Below are positions 3,828 to 16,860 of a stretch of 18,256 bases of DNA, one piece after another (within the stretch, counting starts at the first letter, position 1; each line of letters begins with the position of its first letter). Source of the stretch: a virus. Lineage: Duplodnaviria > Heunggongvirae > Uroviricota > Caudoviricetes. The notes below the pieces were generated by a model. That model worked only from the letters and a program-made list of their open reading frames with translations, ran no database searches and was not told where the DNA came from. The stretch lies in the IMG/VR virus record IMGVR_UViG_2778261299_000001, positions 1 to 18,256 of that record, one strand, 5' to 3'. A program made the position numbers and the translations under genes.

Positions 3828-3845
3828 TGTGTGGTTGTCGGTACA
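3828..3845. promoter_or_regulatory. TGT-N12-ACA dyad (Ogr/Delta-type activator box) of the late promoter upstream of O, in the divergent P/O control region
   Basis: Read directly: TGT at 3828-3830, 12 nt, ACA at 3843-3845. A -10-like CATAAG lies about 40 nt downstream (3884-3889) and the O start codon is at 3924. P2 late promoters carry this dyad centred near -55. Confidence 0.6.
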
Positions 3846-9735: not shown

Positions 9736-9753
9736 TGTATCAGCACTGATACA
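9736..9753. promoter_or_regulatory. TGT-N12-ACA dyad (Ogr-type box) of the late promoter upstream of V
   Basis: Read directly: TGT 9736-9738, 12 nt, ACA 9751-9753, in the 68-bp S-V intergenic gap. Spacing to the V start codon (9800) is short, so the exact transcription start is uncertain. Confidence 0.5.
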
Positions 9754-11629: not shown

Positions 11630-12227
11630 TCTGCTGCCACCGGGTTCAACGCCACTGGAGCGCCGACTGGCACAAACCTGCAGCGGGATTTCTGATTTGC
11701 AGGTGCCGCTACGTGACTTGTGGAATCCGGCGACCTGTCCGGTCAGTTTCCTGCCTTATCTCGCCTGGGCGTTCTCTGTGGATCGCTGGGACGAGGGCTG
11801 GACAGAAAGCGTCAAGCGCCAGGTGGTGAAGGATGCTTTTTATATTCATCAGCATAAAGGAACCACCAGTGCCGTGCGGCGGGTGGTGGAGCCGTTCGGC
11901 TTCCTGATCCGCATTATTGAGTGGTGGCAGACCGGAGAAACACCGGGCACGTTTCGCCTGGATATCGGCGTGCAGGACCAGGGCATCACTGAAGATACCT
12001 ATCTGGAACTTGAGCGACTGATAAGCGATGCCAAACCATGTAGCCGTCACATGATCGGCATGTCTATCAATCTGCAGACCAGCGGCCCGCATTGGGTGGG
12101 AGCCGCCAGCTATCTTGGCGAAGAAATCACGATCTATCCGTATATCAACGAAACAATTATTTCCGGCGGCACCGCGCATGAAGGCGGGGCGGTCCATGTT
12201 ATTGACACAATGAGAGTGAATCCATGA
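11622..12227 (+). CDS. I: baseplate/tail protein, P2 gpI-like
   Basis: 201-codon ORF overlapping the J stop, followed directly by H. Confidence 0.75.
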   Translation: MNSLLPPGSTPLERRLAQTCSGISDLQVPLRDLWNPATCPVSFLPYLAWAFSVDRWDEGWTESVKRQVVKDAFYIHQHKGTTSAVRRVVEPFGFLIRIIEWWQTGETPGTFRLDIGVQDQGITEDTYLELERLISDAKPCSRHMIGMSINLQTSGPHWVGAASYLGEEITIYPYINETIISGGTAHEGGAVHVIDTMRVNP

Positions 12228-13810
12228 GCACAAAATTTTATACCCTGCTGACGGATATTGGCGCGGCGAAACTTGCCAGCGCCGCCGCGCTCGGTGTGCC
12301 TTTAAAAATTACCCATATGGCAGTCGGCGATGGCGGCGGAATATTGCCAACGCCGGACGCAAAGCAGACAGCACTGGTAAATGAGAAACGCCGGGCTGCG
12401 CTGAATATGCTCTATATCGACCCGCAGAACAGCAGCCAGATTATTGCCGAACAGGTGATCCCTGAAAATGAGGGCGGTTGGTGGATCCGTGAAGTGGGCC
12501 TGTTTGATGAGTCCGGGGCATTGATTGCCGTGGGTAACTGCCCGGAAAGCTATAAGCCGCAACTGGCTGAAGGCAGCGGGCGTACCCAGACCGTGCGCAT
12601 GGTGCTGATTACCAGCAGCACGGACAATATCACCCTGAAAATCGACCCTGCCGTCGTGCTGGCAACCCGCAAGTATGTGGATGACAAGGTACTGGAGCTG
12701 AAGGTGTACGTGGATGACCTGATGGCAAAACATCTTATCGCACAGGACCCACATTCACAGTACGCGCCAAAAGCCAGCCCGACATTTAGCGGAACCCCCA
12801 AAGCGCCAACGCCAGCGGCGGGGAATAATACCACGCAGGTTGCGACCACTGCGTTTGTACAGGCGGCACTGACGGCCCTTATTAATGGTGCGCCAGCCAC
12901 GCTGGACACGTTGAAAGAAATAGCCGCAGCCATTAACAATGATCCGAATTTCAGTACCACCATTAACAATGCGCTGGCACTGAAAGCACCGTTGTCGAGT
13001 CCGGCACTCACCGGAACGCCAACAGCCCCCACGGCGGCGCAGTCGGTCAACAATACACAGATTGCCACTACGGCTTTTGTGAAATCGGCGATTGCAGGAA
13101 TGGTGGGTTCTGCACCTGCTGCACTGGATACACTGAACGAACTGGCGGCGGCACTGGGAAATGATCCGAACTTTGCCACGACAATGCTTAATGCGCTGGC
13201 AGGTAAACAACCGCTGGACAATACGCTTACCAATTTGAGTGGAAAGGATGTGGCTGGTCTTCTCGCATACCTTGGTTTGGGAGAAGGCTCAGCATTACCT
13301 GTTGGGGTGCCTGTTCCGTGGCCTTCAGCCACTCCGCCAACAGGCTGGCTGAAATGCAATGGTGCGGCTTTTTCTGCTGAAGAATACCCGGAACTGGCAA
13401 AGGCTTACCCGACAAATAAATTGCCTGATTTACGCGGTGAATTTATTCGTGGATGGGATGATGGGCGCGGGGTGGATGCGGGGCGAGCCTTGTTAAGTCT
13501 TCAGGATGACTCTTTTGAAGCTCACAGACATGAGTCCTTTTTTTACGCGGGTATTTCACGCAATGAAACACCATTAAAAAATCTTCCAAGTTCAGACGAG
13601 ATGCTGACTTTAAGTTCCACAACTAATGCCTTGTCCCCGGACAGTATTGATGCCACCAATTCGTTAATTGGTAATGATGATTACAACTGTCTGATTGAAG
13701 GAAATAAAAATAACAAACGAACGGCAACGGGGTTGAGTACCAGTATTGTCGGTGCAGCAGAGACACGCCCACGTAATATTTCATTTAATTACATTGTGAG
13801 GGCTGCATGA
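12224..13810 (+). CDS. H: tail fibre protein, P2 gpH-like, with conserved N-terminal part, internal repeats and a C-terminal collar-like receptor-binding tip in the current orientation
   Basis: 528-codon ORF. Two diverged copies of an ~55-aa motif in the middle. C-terminal segment (WLKCNGAAFSAEEYPELAKAYP..LPDLRGEFIRGWDDGRGVDAGR...H.H) resembles phage tail-collar domains. An invertase crossover site lies inside the gene at 13260-13285. Confidence 0.85.
   Translation: MSTKFYTLLTDIGAAKLASAAALGVPLKITHMAVGDGGGILPTPDAKQTALVNEKRRAALNMLYIDPQNSSQIIAEQVIPENEGGWWIREVGLFDESGALIAVGNCPESYKPQLAEGSGRTQTVRMVLITSSTDNITLKIDPAVVLATRKYVDDKVLELKVYVDDLMAKHLIAQDPHSQYAPKASPTFSGTPKAPTPAAGNNTTQVATTAFVQAALTALINGAPATLDTLKEIAAAINNDPNFSTTINNALALKAPLSSPALTGTPTAPTAAQSVNNTQIATTAFVKSAIAGMVGSAPAALDTLNELAAALGNDPNFATTMLNALAGKQPLDNTLTNLSGKDVAGLLAYLGLGEGSALPVGVPVPWPSATPPTGWLKCNGAAFSAEEYPELAKAYPTNKLPDLRGEFIRGWDDGRGVDAGRALLSLQDDSFEAHRHESFFYAGISRNETPLKNLPSSDEMLTLSSTTNALSPDSIDATNSLIGNDDYNCLIEGNKNNKRTATGLSTSIVGAAETRPRNISFNYIVRAA
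13260..13285. repeat. left 26-bp invertase crossover site (gix/hix-like), inside H at the constant/variable boundary
   Basis: TTCTCGCATACC-TT-GGTTTGGGAGAA is an imperfect palindrome of two 12-bp half-sites of the type TTCTC..AAACC around a central TT. Its right half is the exact reverse complement of the left half of the site at 14898-14923. Confidence 0.75.
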
Positions 13811-14415
13811 TGTATAACGCTATCTTAAATAATAAATTTATTGCCACAAAGGCAGGAGAGATTACCGTTTATAACTATGACAGTGAGACACGGGAGTATA
13901 TTTCTGCATCAATTGAATATCTTGCTGTGGGTGTCGGTATCCCCGCATATTCCTGTTTAGATGCTCCTGGCACACATAAGGCTGGTTATGCAATCTGCCG
14001 TTCTGCAGATTTTAACTCATGGGAATATGTGCCAGACCATCGCGGTGAAATCGTCTTTAGCACCGAAACAGGAGAATCAAAAGAAATCACAGCTCCGGGT
14101 GATTACCCTGATAATACAACCACTATCGCCCCGTTAACACCATACGATAAATGGGATGGTGAGAAATGGGTGACGGATACCGAGGCACAGCATAGCGCCG
14201 CAGTAGATGCAGCAGAAGCACAACGCCAGTCGCTGATTGATACTGCAATGGCTTCCATCAGTCTGATTCAACTGAAATTACAGGCCGGACGGAATCTGAC
14301 GCAGGCAGAAACCAGCCGACTTAACACGGTGCTGGATTACATTGACGCGGTGACGGCAACAGATACCAGCACCGCGCCTGATATTATTTGGCCTGTATTC
14401 CCTGAGACTGATTAA
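13807..14415 (+). CDS. G: tail fibre assembly chaperone (Tfa; P2 gpG / Mu U-like)
   Basis: 202-codon ORF overlapping the H stop (ATGA). C-terminus TDTSTAPDIIWPVFPETD closely resembles the conserved C-terminus of lambda Tfa as I recall it. Confidence 0.85.
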   Translation: MMYNAILNNKFIATKAGEITVYNYDSETREYISASIEYLAVGVGIPAYSCLDAPGTHKAGYAICRSADFNSWEYVPDHRGEIVFSTETGESKEITAPGDYPDNTTTIAPLTPYDKWDGEKWVTDTEAQHSAAVDAAEAQRQSLIDTAMASISLIQLKLQAGRNLTQAETSRLNTVLDYIDAVTATDTSTAPDIIWPVFPETD

Positions 14416-14644
14416 CCTCAATTAGTATTGGTTCGCCTTTCTCATTAATTGTTAGCTCCATGCCCTGAGGAATTTCTGTCATAGTAAAAAACCAATTGTC
14501 CTCCGGTAATTCAATAGCCCCGGTCACGTCATGAAGACCGGGGATTACTTCAGTCAAAGTAACTGGATTAAACAGGCGCACAATAAACCCTCCAGGAAAA
14601 AGCATTTGATGATGGTCTGCCGTCGTACATCTGGCAGCGGGCAT
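14384..14644 (-). CDS. possible alternative tail-fibre assembly chaperone (G'-like) or decayed remnant
   Basis: Only minus-strand ORF between the G stop and the alternative fibre-tip cassette. At 86 codons or fewer it is short, none of its candidate ATGs has a convincing ribosome-binding site, and it lacks the Tfa C-terminal motif seen in G. Confidence 0.3.
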   Translation of the reverse strand: MPAARCTTADHHQMLFPGGFIVRLFNPVTLTEVIPGLHDVTGAIELPEDNWFFTMTEIPQGMELTINEKGEPILIEVNQSQGIQAK

Positions 14645-14897
14645 AAAAGCCGGTATTTGTTACCTGATCATCCACGATCATTGAAACGTGAACATTATTA
14701 GGTGTGCTCTCGTAATCCGTTCTTATTCTTTCCGCGATACTGATAAAACGTGAAAGTTTAGGCAGTGCAATTGGGTAAACAACTTTAGCCAGTCCATTAT
14801 CATTAGATCCACCGGTTCCAAATACTTCTATTGCACCATCTGACCAGCGTATCCATGCACCATTGGCATTAGCTCCTCGCTGAATGACATATCTGGC
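14568..14897 (-). CDS. promoterless alternative tail-fibre C-terminal cassette (H'v); expressed only after inversion, as an in-frame fusion to the constant part of H
   Basis: The minus-strand frame runs through the right crossover site encoding GLGE, the same residues and frame as LGLGE at the left site in H. After inversion H would continue as ...GLGEARYVIQRGANANGAWIRW... for about 108 codons to the stop at 14568-14570. Confidence 0.65.
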   Translation of the reverse strand, partial: ARYVIQRGANANGAWIRWSDGAIEVFGTGGSNDNGLAKVVYPIALPKLSRFISIAERIRTDYESTPNNVHVSMIVDDQVTNTGFYARCQMYDGRPSSNAFSWRVYCAPV

Positions 14898-14923
14898 TTC
14901 TCCCAAACCAACGTTTATGAAAA
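14898..14923. repeat. right 26-bp invertase crossover site (gix/hix-like), just upstream of the invertase gene
   Basis: TTCTCCCAAACC-AA-CGTTTATGAAAA. The left half-site is an exact 12/12 reverse-complement match to 13274-13285, and the central dinucleotide is inverted relative to the left site. Confidence 0.75.
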
Positions 14924-14978
14924 TGCAGAGATAATGGCTAACTGGCATCATCCACGGTTTTTATTCAGGGGATTGATC

Positions 14979-15545
14979 ATGCTTATTGGCTATGTACGCG
15001 TGTCAACAAATGACCAGAACACCGATTTGCAACGTAATGCACTGAACTGCGCGGGATGTGAGCGGATTTTTGAGGATAAAATCAGTGGCACTAAGTCCGA
15101 CAGACCGGGGCTTAAAAAACTGTTCAGGACACTATCGGCAGGAGACACTCTGGTTGTCTGGAAGCTGGACAGGTTGGGGCGCAGTATGCGGCATCTTGTT
15201 ACGCTGATAGAAGAGTTGCGTCAGCGTGGCGTGAATTTCCGAAGCCTGACTGACAGTATTGATACCAGCACCCCAATGGGCCGTTTCTTTTTTCATGTCA
15301 TGGGGGCCCTGGCTGAAATGGAACGCGAACTGATAGTTGAACGTACCATGGCAGGGCTGGCTGCAGCTCGTGCCAAAGGCAGAGTAGGTGGACGCCGTCC
15401 TAAGTTGACCACCGAACAGTGGGCACAGATTGGGCGTTTACTCGAGGCCGGAGAATCAAGACAGCGTATTGCACTGATTTTTGATGTAGGCGTTTCTACC
15501 ATTTATAGAAAATTTCCGGCAAATAAGAGCAATGAATCCCCCTGA
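14979..15545 (+). CDS. serine-recombinase DNA invertase of the Gin/Hin/Pin/Cin family
   Basis: ATG at 14979 with AGGGGA 7 nt upstream. N-terminus MLIGYVRVSTNDQNTDLQ carries the catalytic serine motif of this family. Near-colinear with e14 Pin, Mu Gin and Hin as I recall them, including the C-terminal helix-turn-helix (GVSTIYRKF). Confidence 0.9.
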   Translation: MLIGYVRVSTNDQNTDLQRNALNCAGCERIFEDKISGTKSDRPGLKKLFRTLSAGDTLVVWKLDRLGRSMRHLVTLIEELRQRGVNFRSLTDSIDTSTPMGRFFFHVMGALAEMERELIVERTMAGLAAARAKGRVGGRRPKLTTEQWAQIGRLLEAGESRQRIALIFDVGVSTIYRKFPANKSNESP

Positions 15546-15593
15546 ATCAGCATTATTTTGATTATCCCTGCAAGTAGACAAATACCGTCATTT

Positions 15594-15611
15594 TGTGTGA
15601 ATAACGACACA
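15594..15611. promoter_or_regulatory. TGT-N12-ACA dyad (Ogr-type box) of the late promoter upstream of FI
   Basis: Read directly: TGT 15594-15596, 12 nt, ACA 15609-15611. A -10-like CATAGG lies about 40 nt downstream; AGGAGG is 9 nt before the FI start at 15688. Confidence 0.6.
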
Positions 15612-15687
15612 ACTGCGCTTAGCTGTTTGTCAGGCACAATCACTTCAACATAGGGCGAAGCCTAATCCAATCAGGAGGTTCGCCACT

Positions 15688-16860
15688 ATGGCTCAGGATT
15701 ACCACCACGGGGTGCGCGTTGTTGAAGTCAACGAAGGCACCCGATCTATTACCACGGTGAGCACCGCCATCGTGGGTATGGTCTGCACGGGCGATGATGC
15801 CGATGCAAAAATGTTTCCTCTTAATAAACCCGTGCTGATCACTGATGTGCTGACTGCCAGCGGTAAAGCGGGTGAGTCAGGTACTCTGGCCCGTTCGCTG
15901 GATGCCATCGCTGACCAGGCAAAACCCGTGACCATTGTTGTGCGTGTGCCGCAGGGTGAAACGGAAGACGAAACCACGACCAATATCATCGGCGCAGTGA
16001 CTGCTGAAGGTAAAAAAACAGGTATGAAAGCCCTGTTATCTGCCCAGTCACAGCTCGGCGTTAAACCGCGCATTCTCGGCGTGCCAGGCCACGACACCAA
16101 GGCGGTAGCTACTGAGTTGCTGAGCGTGGCGCAAAGCCTGCGTGGATTTGCTTACCTGTCAGCGTATGGCTGCAAGACAGTGCAGGAGGCGATCACTTAC
16201 CGCGAAAACTTCAGCCAGCGCGAAGGGATGCTGATCTGGCCTGACTTTACTGGCTGGGACACGGTGCTGAATGCCGAAGCAACGGCATATGCCACCGCCC
16301 GTGCGCTTGGTCTGCGCGCCAAAATTGACGAGCAGACCGGATGGCACAAAAGCCTGTCCAACGTGGGCGTGAACGGTGTCACCGGAATTTCTGCAGATGT
16401 GTTCTGGGATCTGCAGGACCCGGCAACCGATGCAGGTCTGCTGAACCAGAACGACGTCACCACGCTTGTGCGTAAAGACGGTTTCCGCTTCTGGGGTTCC
16501 CGCTGCCTGAGTGATGACCCGCTCTTTGCCTTCGAAAACTACACCCGCACGGCGCAGGTGCTGATGGACACGATGGCAGAAGCACACATGTGGGCGGTGG
16601 ATAAACCGCTTAACCCGTCGCTGGCCCGCGACATTATCGAAGGTATCCGCGCCAAAATGCGCAGCCTGGTCAGTCAGGGCTATCTCATTGGTGGTGATTG
16701 CTGGCTGGATGAGTCGGTGAACGACAAAGACACGCTGAAAGCCGGAAAACTCACCATCGACTACGACTACACGCCAGTGCCGCCACTTGAAAACCTGATG
16801 CTGCGTCAGCGCATCACCGATCAGTACCTGGTGAATTTCGCCAGCCAGGTCAGCGCGTAA
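15688..16860 (+). CDS. FI: contractile tail sheath protein, P2 gpFI-like
   Basis: 390-codon ORF with strong ribosome-binding site, first gene after the late promoter box. Size and position match P2 FI. Confidence 0.9.

Follow-up and report, generated by a model that had tools for sequence, protein, structure and literature searches.

How does the tail fibre gene of a P2-like prophage come to lie beside a second, silent fibre tip encoded on the opposite strand, and can that tip be brought into use? The DNA analysed here (18,256 nucleotides, hereafter the window) in all likelihood corresponds to the late region of a P2-like (Peduoviridae) E. coli prophage that seems to be intact, in which the P2 late gene set is complete and uninterrupted. 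A preliminary description of this DNA had proposed an invertase-driven tail-fibre switch, and every element of that reading held up, namely the enzyme, the sites, the collar tip, and the inversion in relatives. We are highly confident that a 1.64-kb segment is flipped by an enzyme of the Gin/Cin/Pin type, by which the tail fibre receives either of two tips. This is an ordinary phage host-range switch of a kind that is already known. PADLOC and Pfam searches with the partial open reading frame at positions 2-790 yielded nothing useful.

Crossover sites and the invertible segment

The left crossover site is located inside the fibre gene H at 13260-13285 (TTCTCGCATACC TT GGTTTGGGAGAA, core 13272-13273), and the right site is located at 14898-14923 (TTCTCCCAAACC AA CGTTTATGAAAA, core 14910-14911), in agreement to the base with the sequences and positions first reported. 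Measured from core to core, the invertible segment (13272-14911), which was seen inverted in relatives, comprises 1640 bp. An inverted-repeat search between positions 12000 and 16000 returned the site pair as the longest repeat, with 27 nt and 81% complementarity. The half-sites had been described as identical and the cores as inverted; the inner half of the left site (13274-13285) is the exact reverse complement of its counterpart in the right site (14898-14909), and the cores, TT on the left and AA on the right, match after inversion.

Taken by itself, an exact inverted repeat of 12-mers carries no significance, since about 10 such pairs were expected in 18 kb and 27 were observed. The sites are significant because they fit the family consensus and because of their context, in frame inside a fibre gene and adjoining an invertase gene. 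With at most 3 mismatches, the consensus TTCTCNNAAACCNNGGTTTNNGAGAA was found at just these two places in the window (0.00 expected, 200 shuffles), the two sites having 1 and 2 mismatches. When the scan was loosened to 6 mismatches, these were still the only two sites in the window, and the same loosened scan in Mu and P1 picked out exactly the annotated gix and cix sites. Both sites align with the annotated gix and cix, with e14 pix, and with the corresponding sites flanking the Fels-2 segment. A poor fit to the gix/hix/pix consensus had been named as an argument against the switch, and both 26-mers were found to fit the Hin/Gin/Cin/Pin consensus. A chance repeat was ruled out by this fit, and a multi-site shufflon, as in one EPEC prophage, was ruled out by the presence of two sites only, even at 6 mismatches. 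The scan for sigma-70 promoters and terminators around the switch gave nothing useful (3 found versus 3.5 expected), and no promoter of the invertase gene was identified in it.

The fibre gene and its present tip

In its present state, H (12224-13810, plus strand) encodes 528 aa, with Pfam matches to Phage_tail_fib at residues 1-150 (E 1e-64) and to Collar at residues 361-408 (E 5e-15). Codons 1-355 (12224-13288, through GLGE) are common to both forms of the gene, while codons 356-528 constitute the collar-type tip. The frame of H at the left site reads ...LAYLGLGE-GSALP, and the minus strand at the right site reads ...FINVGLGE-ARYVIQ. Exchange of DNA starts at the core (13272/13273), and the GLGE codons (13277-13288) stay the same, as the incoming inner half-site brings identical ones. 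Inversion of the segment in silico gave an uninterrupted H' of 463 aa, in which codons 1-355 of H continue in frame into the 109 alternative codons. This bears out the claim that GLGE is encoded in the same frame at both sites. The exchange had been estimated at some 175 codons for about 108, and the actual figures are 173 codons replaced by 109.

The tip that is currently fused carries the Pfam Collar domain, as expected from the statement that a collar-like tip is now expressed, and it matched the collar regions of T4 gp37 and gp12 in the PDB. Its first 237 nt are 90% identical to e14 stfE. The adjoining gene G (13807-14415, plus strand) encodes a tail-fibre assembly protein of 202 aa serving the collar tip (Pfam Caudo_TAP, E 5.5e-32). 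It is a TfaE-like allele, with DNA that is 88.6% identical to e14 tfaE.

The silent tip and the 65-aa gene

The silent alternative tip, H'v, occupies 14568-14909 on the minus strand, where the frame was read as GLGE followed by 109 codons and a stop at 14568-14570. By sequence, the tip had no match in the PDB and a weak match to the Pfam family Gp53-like_C. Its AlphaFold model (pLDDT 83) matched the fibre foot of R1/R2 pyocins and AP22 gp53 with E values of 1.5e-5 to 5e-5 and a probability of 1.00, at TM scores of 0.61-0.71 (normalised to the query) and a sequence identity of 14-17%. The silent tip is thus predicted to be a lectin "foot" like those of R-pyocins and AP22 gp53, and the two tips are predicted to have unrelated folds, a T4-type collar and a pyocin-type foot. 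Elsewhere the foot is expressed as the end of 463-aa fibres, which are annotated in NCTC8623, strain 64, and 30EVA2.

Downstream of the alternative tip lies a conserved gene of 65 aa (14384-14581, minus strand; phrog_5400; PGAP WP_001440573.1). The preliminary description made no mention of it. Its start codon is GTG, GGAGG lies 7 nt upstream of it, and the gene shares 14 nt with the end of the tip gene, stop codon included. Its product matched phrog_5400 with an E value of 8e-25, but over positions 1-66 only of the 145-position profile. The 77 homologues, from E. coli, Salmonella, and Enterobacter, have lengths of about 46-90 aa (most 57-73) and identities down to 62%. No match was found in Pfam or NCBIfam, the protein has neither a Tfa signature nor the conserved C-terminal Tfa domain, and its structural model found no fold match in Foldseek (best E 0.75). 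Longer open reading frames (86 aa from ATG 14644 and 127 aa from ATG 14951) were dropped, as PGAP and the family alignments use other starts.

A partner role is suggested by the location of the gene and by the stretch it shares with the tip gene, and the 65-aa protein is presumed to be a partner or chaperone of the alternative tip. Since this partner is not a recognisable Tfa, a functional fibre in the flipped state is only putative. An origin of the gene as a one-off truncation of a 145-147-aa Tfa is not supported, because its homologues are consistently short, mostly 57-73 aa, and because no similarity was seen to 500465-1 gp33, e14 TfaP, or Fels-2 G'. In a megablast search of phage genomes, the sole match to the alternative module was phage S164, with 70% identity and the same arrangement as in the window.

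The invertase and its putative enhancer

A serine DNA invertase of the Gin/Cin/Pin/Fin type is encoded next to the right site (14979-15545, plus strand, 188 aa), with Pfam Resolvase at residues 3-135 (E 3e-52) and HTH_7 at residues 138-181. Residues 1-184 align with Mu Gin 3uj3 (E 3.6e-93), and the identity is 85% to Fels-2 Fin and 78% to P1 Cin. The catalytic serine is present in the motif VRVST, where the crystallised 3uj3 has VAT and 4m6f has VST. While an inactivated invertase had been named as a sign against the switch, the enzyme proved intact and full length with its catalytic serine. The architecture that had been likened to the Mu G, P1 C, and e14 P segments is indeed present, with a full-length Gin-like invertase adjoining the right site and with sites that align with gix, cix, and pix. 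A start at ATG 14934 was dropped in favour of the start used by PGAP and the family alignments.

A putative recombinational enhancer was located within the invertase gene at 14997-15068 (gene nt 19-90) by homology to the P1 cin enhancer, 56 of the 72 bases being identical to the region annotated in P1 as 'enhancer of Cin-mediated C-segment inversion'. The consensus used for Fis sites is KNNYRNNWNNYRNNM. Two 15-mers fit it, at positions 15001-15015 and 15049-15063, and their centres are separated by 48 bp. Each of the six genes in the comparison, gin, cin, pin, and fin among them, has such 15-mers with centres at gene nt 30 and 78, although this degenerate consensus is matched about once per 128 positions. 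The conservation of the enhancer does not constitute independent evidence, because the region is conserved coding sequence. The 5' end of the invertase gene may act as a Fis-bound enhancer, and inversion would then depend on Fis and, as in other systems of this family, on negative supercoiling.

Both orientations in related genomes

The observation of a single orientation only had been put forward as evidence against the switch. In public genomes, both orientations were found in near-identical prophages, with breakpoints inside the 26-mers, the evidence coming from relatives that share 92-99% identity with the window. The window flipped in silico matched NCTC8623, WAT, and O111:H21 15A over 100% of its length with 97.4-97.5% identity, and the unflipped window matched M8, Z1323HEC0423, and others. 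The breakpoints in relatives map to window positions 13272-13286 on the left and 14897-14914 on the right. In the sister isolates 61 and 64, the flanks are 100% identical over 6187 and 6204 bp, and the 1.69 kb between the sites is inverted. Their left site is the same as in the window and their right site differs by one base. Among the DG34x/DG35x isolates, clonal records of identical length differ in orientation. In the NCTC8623 record, the first 22.66 kb duplicate the last 22.65 kb and differ from them by small indels, one mismatch, and this inversion, so that the untrimmed terminal overlap carries both orientations. The junction of the constant part of H with the foot was found in 36 complete E. 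coli genomes.

The switch could nevertheless be a fossil in this particular strain, with a copy that no longer inverts and a minus-strand module that is a decaying remnant. The enzyme has been lost in some relatives, as in 30EVA2 with its frameshifted recombinase, and the coverage of only positions 1-66 of the phrog_5400 profile by the 65-aa gene could be read as truncation. However, the invertase of the window runs to full length and retains its catalytic serine, the two crossover sites conform to the consensus, and the sister isolates, whose sites are so nearly those of the window, show both orientations. Moreover, the 65-aa gene and the alternative tip each keep an invariant core and a stable length in homologues with as little as 53-62% identity, which is not a pattern of decay. 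We consider a fossil improbable, and the copy in the source strain is probably active, to judge from relatives with 92-99% identity.

Cassette sharing and significance

The cassette is 99% identical in an e14-like defective element of AL.H8 and in a different P2-like prophage, 30EVA2, and in both cases the 26-bp sites mark precisely where this high identity ends, with 72-80% or none at all beyond them. Roughly 60 complete genomes carry the cassette. It is conceivable, though we hold it to be rather doubtful, that the 1.64-kb cassette is a mobile module swapped between prophages by the invertase at the crossover sites, and that its silent half pairs a pyocin-like lectin foot with a hitherto uncharacterised 65-aa family, a minimal tip-specific assembly factor replacing the two-domain Tfa.

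Kirigo et al. 2025 (PMC12529663) report that StfE2, the product of an inverted P segment in e14 (PinQ/e14), keeps T2 from adsorbing. With this precedent, the e14 affinity of the first 237 nt of the collar tip, a right site identical to an e14 site, and the same cassette inside the AL.H8 element, inversion might mainly serve the host through a flipped fibre-derived protein that alters the cell surface or blocks the adsorption of other phages, but this is very unlikely indeed, as the cassette here lies in a prophage with complete, uninterrupted P2 late genes and nothing in the sequence points to expression in the lysogen. H is a gene of the PV operon, a late operon for which a TGT-N12-ACA motif lies at 9736, and its expression is therefore expected in lytic growth rather than in the lysogen.

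A phage host-range switch is thus the preferred reading, and knowledge of DNA inversion systems is left unchanged by it. Three genes that are called 'hypothetical' in the public annotation obtain a correct functional annotation. The prophage is predicted to release two virion types with different receptors, which is useful for host-range prediction. The finding also helps in reading structural variation in E. coli assemblies, since one RefSeq record contains a 22.6-kb untrimmed duplication that arose through this inversion. Experiments might be worthwhile on two points only, the 65-aa partner protein of the pyocin-like tip and the sharing of the cassette, with the crossover sites as its limits, between unrelated prophages.

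Proposed mechanism

The segment carries the 3' part of H, G, and the opposite-strand module consisting of the alternative tip and the 65-aa gene. The adjacent serine invertase is envisaged to act as Gin, Cin, and Hin do, first binding both 26-bp sites and then assembling with Fis on the enhancer within its own gene. Cutting at the central TT/AA dinucleotides and strand exchange would leave the segment inverted. In the present orientation, the PV-operon transcript would encode H with the collar tip resembling T4 gp37/gp12, followed by G. After inversion, it would encode H(1-355) fused in frame to the 109-residue foot of the R-pyocin/AP22-gp53 type, followed by the 65-aa protein. With two states of H produced by inversion, a lysogen population would release virions of two receptor specificities, a form of bet-hedging on host range.

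Comparison with known systems

Fels-2 of Salmonella Typhimurium LT2 shares the gene order I - H - G - (G' - H'v, on the other strand) - invertase - FI with the window. Its Fin is 85% identical to the invertase described here, and the outer half-sites of the two systems are nearly the same (TTCTCACATACC and TTTTCATAAACC), whereas the core is TC in Fels-2 and TT in the window. The alternative modules differ, with a 359-aa tip (annotated as a probable pseudogene) and a 135-aa Tfa-type G' in Fels-2, and a 109-residue foot and a 65-aa non-Tfa gene in the window.

In e14 of K-12, the site next to pinE is identical to the right site of the window, the left inner half-site and TT core are also identical, and the invertase DNA is about 80% identical. 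However, e14 is defective and the constant part of its StfP is short, while the window belongs to a P2-like prophage, and the K-12 e14 alternative module (StfP tip and 137-aa TfaP) is unrelated to the module with the foot and the 65-aa gene.

The G segment of Mu with Gin and the C segment of P1 with Cin follow the same logic, in which a constant fibre N-terminus is joined to one of two C-termini, each with an accessory gene, by recombination at 26-bp sites. As in the window, the invertase gene lies outside the segment, and its 5' end holds the enhancer, where the putative one is located here. The Mu and P1 segments are larger (3 kb and 4.2 kb) than the 1640 bp found here, and both of their accessory genes encode full-length Tfa proteins (U and U', 175-177 aa), whereas in the window just G is a recognisable Tfa. 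The virion types also differ from the P2-like one, and the tips show no sequence relationship.

In its predicted fold, the silent tip matches the C-terminal lectin-like domain in the R-type pyocin fibre foot (PA0620) and in gp53 of Acinetobacter phage AP22, fibres that are not known to sit on invertible segments. The P2-like prophages of EPEC E2348/69 have inversions that were demonstrated by sequencing and that yield alternative carboxyl termini of one protein (Goldberg et al. 2014, PMC4272514). One EPEC E2348/69 locus has three inverted repeats and four variants (PMC4272514), while the window has two sites only.

Crossover sites and in-frame fusion of H

The window very probably carries a two-site serine-invertase switch of the Fis-enhancer type, of the same kind as Mu G, P1 C, e14 P, and Fels-2, which alternates the C-terminus of the tail fiber. 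Read directly, the left crossover site, TTCTCGCATACC-TT-GGTTTGGGAGAA, occupies 13260-13285 inside H, and the right site, TTCTCCCAAACC-AA-CGTTTATGAAAA, occupies 14898-14923, exactly where the preliminary description had placed them. Also as described, each inner half-site is the exact reverse complement of the other, with TT and AA as the cores. An exact 12-mer inverted repeat is by itself without significance, as 27 such pairs were seen in the window against approximately 10 expected. In a repeat search of 12000-16000, the site pair was the longest inverted repeat (27 nt, 81% complementary). With up to three mismatches allowed, the consensus TTCTCNNAAACCNNGGTTTNNGAGAA matched the window only at the two sites, with 0.00 matches expected from 200 shuffles, which supports the proposed fit to the gix/hix/pix type.

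Across the left site, the H protein (12224-13810) reads ...AGLLAYLGLGE-GSALPVG..., and the minus-strand frame across the right site reads ...FINVGLGE-ARYVIQ...CAPV*, with GLGE in frame at both sites as previously noted. When 13272-14911 was inverted in silico, an unbroken ORF resulted, encoding a 463-aa product (H′). Inversion thus trades 173 codons of H for 109 without a frameshift, close to the earlier estimate of about 175 for about 108.

Both orientations among related prophages

The region 13100-15100 was searched as it stands and after flipping in silico. Over its full length, the unflipped query matched M8 and Z1323HEC0423 at 99.3% identity and four further genomes at approximately 97.4%; in several other genomes the match was limited to query positions ~173-1815, which is exactly the core-to-core segment. 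The flipped query matched NCTC8623, WAT, and O111:H21 15A end to end (97.4-97.5% identity), and the NCTC8623 genome was matched by both queries. In the E. coli NCTC8623 record (NZ_LR134234.1), the first 22,657 bp (L005 1-22657) duplicate the last 22,653 bp (L007 9348-32000), and the copies differ only in small indels, a single mismatch, and the inverted 1.64-kb segment, with breakpoints at 13272-13286 and 14897-14914 on window coordinates. The duplication coincides with the record ends, and one copy is full of indel frameshifts; this RefSeq "complete" chromosome contains a 22.6-kb untrimmed circular overlap duplicating most of the prophage. Therefore, both orientations were present among the reads of one culture, and the overlap apparently remained unmerged because its ends hold the fiber segment in opposite orientations.

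Strains 61 and 64 carry a prophage 92% related to that of the window, with the same left site and one base different in the right site. Their flanks are 100% identical over 6187 and 6204 bp, and the intervening 1.69 kb is inverted between them. Opposite orientations were also found in DG343-1, DG342-2, and DG351-2 versus DG341-1 (all records 5,067,659 bp), in 82.0311 versus 82.0312, and in E. coli W versus records labelled "DH5alpha", which are presumably of the same lineage as W. The preliminary description had counted a single orientation across many reads and strains, together with an inactivated invertase, against the switch; relatives show both orientations, in the NCTC8623 overlap, in strains 61 and 64, and in the clonal sets. 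Among complete E. coli genomes, 36 had the junction of the constant part of H with the alternative (foot) tip and 525 the junction with the collar tip, numbers that form no ratio because other alternative modules, too, occur together with the collar tip. Goldberg et al. (2014; PMC4272514) demonstrated inversion in E. coli P2-like prophages by sequencing.

Genes of the switch and its surroundings

The window represents the late region of a P2-like prophage. Genes recognized in it are those for the portal, the large terminase, and a P2-family capsid, together with V, J, I, H, G, FI (sheath), FII (tube), and E. The nearest matches to the window come from Peduoviridae phages and from E. coli chromosomes. 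Behind H lie the gene of the assembly protein G (13807-14415; Caudo_TAP) and, on the minus strand, a 65-aa gene (14384-14581) and the alternative tip (14568-14909). A 188-aa serine recombinase with Resolvase and HTH_7 domains is encoded directly beyond the right site (14979-15545). Its residues 1-184 align with Mu Gin (E = 3.6e-93); its identity is 85% with Fels-2 Fin and 78% with P1 Cin. Family sites, a Gin-like recombinase, and both orientations in relatives bear out the assignment to the Mu G / P1 C / e14 P type. The switch would exchange the C-terminal receptor-binding domain of a P2-type fiber together with the accessory gene behind it. The window shows the collar state, and the inversions were seen in relatives. 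The main residual alternative, that the window's own copy is inactive, is improbable; the recombinase retains the active-site serine.

TGT-N12-ACA motifs, presumably the Ogr/Delta-dependent late-promoter element of P2, were found at 3828 (upstream of O), 9736 (upstream of V), and 15594 (upstream of FI), positions in keeping with the P2 late operon structure. From these motifs we infer that H, G, and the invertible segment end the V operon, and that FI is probably served by its own promoter. A role of the inversion in serving the host, as reported for PinQ/StfE2 (PMC12529663), is very unlikely because H belongs to the late operon of an apparently intact prophage.

The P1 annotation "enhancer of Cin-mediated C-segment inversion" covers nt 19-90 of cin, and the homologous stretch of the window (14997-15068) has the same base at 56 of 72 positions. 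The Fis consensus KNNYRNNWNNYRNNM, reportedly that of Hübner and Arber, was matched at nt 23-37 and 71-85 of the invertase gene, with centers 48 bp apart, the spacing established for Hin, Gin, and Cin. Matches lie at equal gene positions in gin, cin, pin, fin, and the phage 500465-1 gene. Given a degenerate consensus and a location within conserved coding sequence, this putative enhancer is consistent with Fis-enhancer function but no proof of it.

At the window's start, the plus-strand ORF at 2-790 comprises the last 262 codons (the 3′ part) of a cargo gene that precedes the portal gene Q, at the variable P2 hotspot. Its product is coiled-coil-like with two hydrophobic helices, and Pfam, PADLOC, and NCBIfam searches with the partial ORF gave no match. 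The same position holds PIN-domain and HEPN-domain genes in M8, the closest relative, and the retron Ec67 reverse transcriptase in NCTC8623; the ORF may be an uncharacterized defense gene.

The two tips and the 65-aa protein

The tip fused to the end of H has a Pfam Collar domain and an HRH motif, and in the PDB it matches the collar regions of T4 gp37 and gp12, in agreement with the collar-like tip proposed for the current state. Phage 500465-1 shares 97% identity with the window as far as 13464 and 88% from 13766 (G) onward, while DNA similarity is undetectable over 13465-13765, the distal ~100 codons of the collar tip. The collar domain is therefore exchanged separately from the receptor-binding end.

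The silent tip had no PDB match by sequence. Its family extends to Serratia, Enterobacter, Salmonella, and Xenorhabdus, with conservation down to 53% identity. The predicted model (pLDDT 83, pTM 0.74) matches the C-terminal foot of the R1 and R2 pyocin fibers and AP22 gp53 (E 1.5e-5 to 5e-5, probability 1.00, TM up to 0.71), with which a weak Pfam Gp53-like_C match agrees. An ATG at 14951, beyond the segment, would lengthen the ORF (14924-14951, minus; MMPVSHYLCIFINVGLGE...), and PGAP annotates the longer form as a hypothetical protein of 126 aa. Relatives conserve this extension, which need not mean translation because the crossover site and the invertase leader overlap it.

The 65-aa gene (WP_001440573.1 by PGAP) starts at a GTG preceded by GGAGG at a distance of 7 nt, and it overlaps the silent tip's stop by 14 nt. 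Its product matches only positions 1-66 of phrog_5400, shows no similarity to Tfa of e14, Fels-2, Mu, or 500465-1, and lacks the conserved C-terminal ...DTSxPDxxWP domain of Tfa proteins. No Pfam or NCBIfam match was found, nor any fold match with the model (pLDDT 76). All 77 homologues detected (E. coli, Salmonella, and Enterobacter; identity down to 62%) are short, 57-73 aa in most cases, and share an invariant core of ~50 residues, which indicates a real small-protein family rather than a one-off truncation. We infer that the protein is an assembly partner of the foot tip, and it may be a minimal fiber-tip chaperone.

Comparison with known invertase systems

Mu, P1, Fels-2, and K-12 e14 were scanned with the same loose consensus as the window. 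In Mu and P1, the scan gave exactly the annotated G-segment and C-segment boundaries, and in each other locus exactly two sites flanking fiber modules. Written in one orientation as outer half, core, and inner half, the window sites are TTCTCGCATACC-TT-GGTTTGGGAGAA (left) and TTTTCATAAACG-TT-GGTTTGGGAGAA (right); those of e14 are CTCTCGAAAACC-TT-GGTTTGGGAGAA and TTTTCATAAACG-TT-GGTTTGGGAGAA, those of Fels-2 TTCTCACATACC-TC-GGTTTAGGCGAA and TTTTCATAAACC-TC-GGTTTAGGCGAA, P1 cixL and cixR CAATCCTAAACC-TT-GGTTTAAGAGAA and TTATCCAATACC-TT-GGTTTAAGAGAA, and both Mu gix sites TTATCCAAAACC-TC-GGTTTACAGGAA. The e14 sites are equal or nearly equal to those of the window, the one adjoining pinE being identical to the right site, and tfaE is 88.6% identical in DNA to G.

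The cassette (13269-14916) is 99% identical to segments of AL.H8 (L002 2998-4645) and 30EVA2 (L004 3001-4643). The AL.H8 carrier is an e14-like defective element in which the cassette adjoins pinE, and the 30EVA2 carrier is a different P2-like prophage with a frameshifted invertase. Identity ends exactly at the 26-bp sites, with flanks 72-80% identical or unrelated, a pattern suggesting that prophages may exchange the cassette as a unit at the crossover sites. Such exchange is said to be an old idea of Sandmeier, Iida, and Arber, which the site-delimited identity fits.

With the gene order of Fels-2, e14-like sites, and inversion documented in P2-like prophages, the switch is a system of an already known type, in which the site-bounded sharing of the cassette and the pairing of the foot tip with a non-Tfa 65-aa protein are less ordinary.
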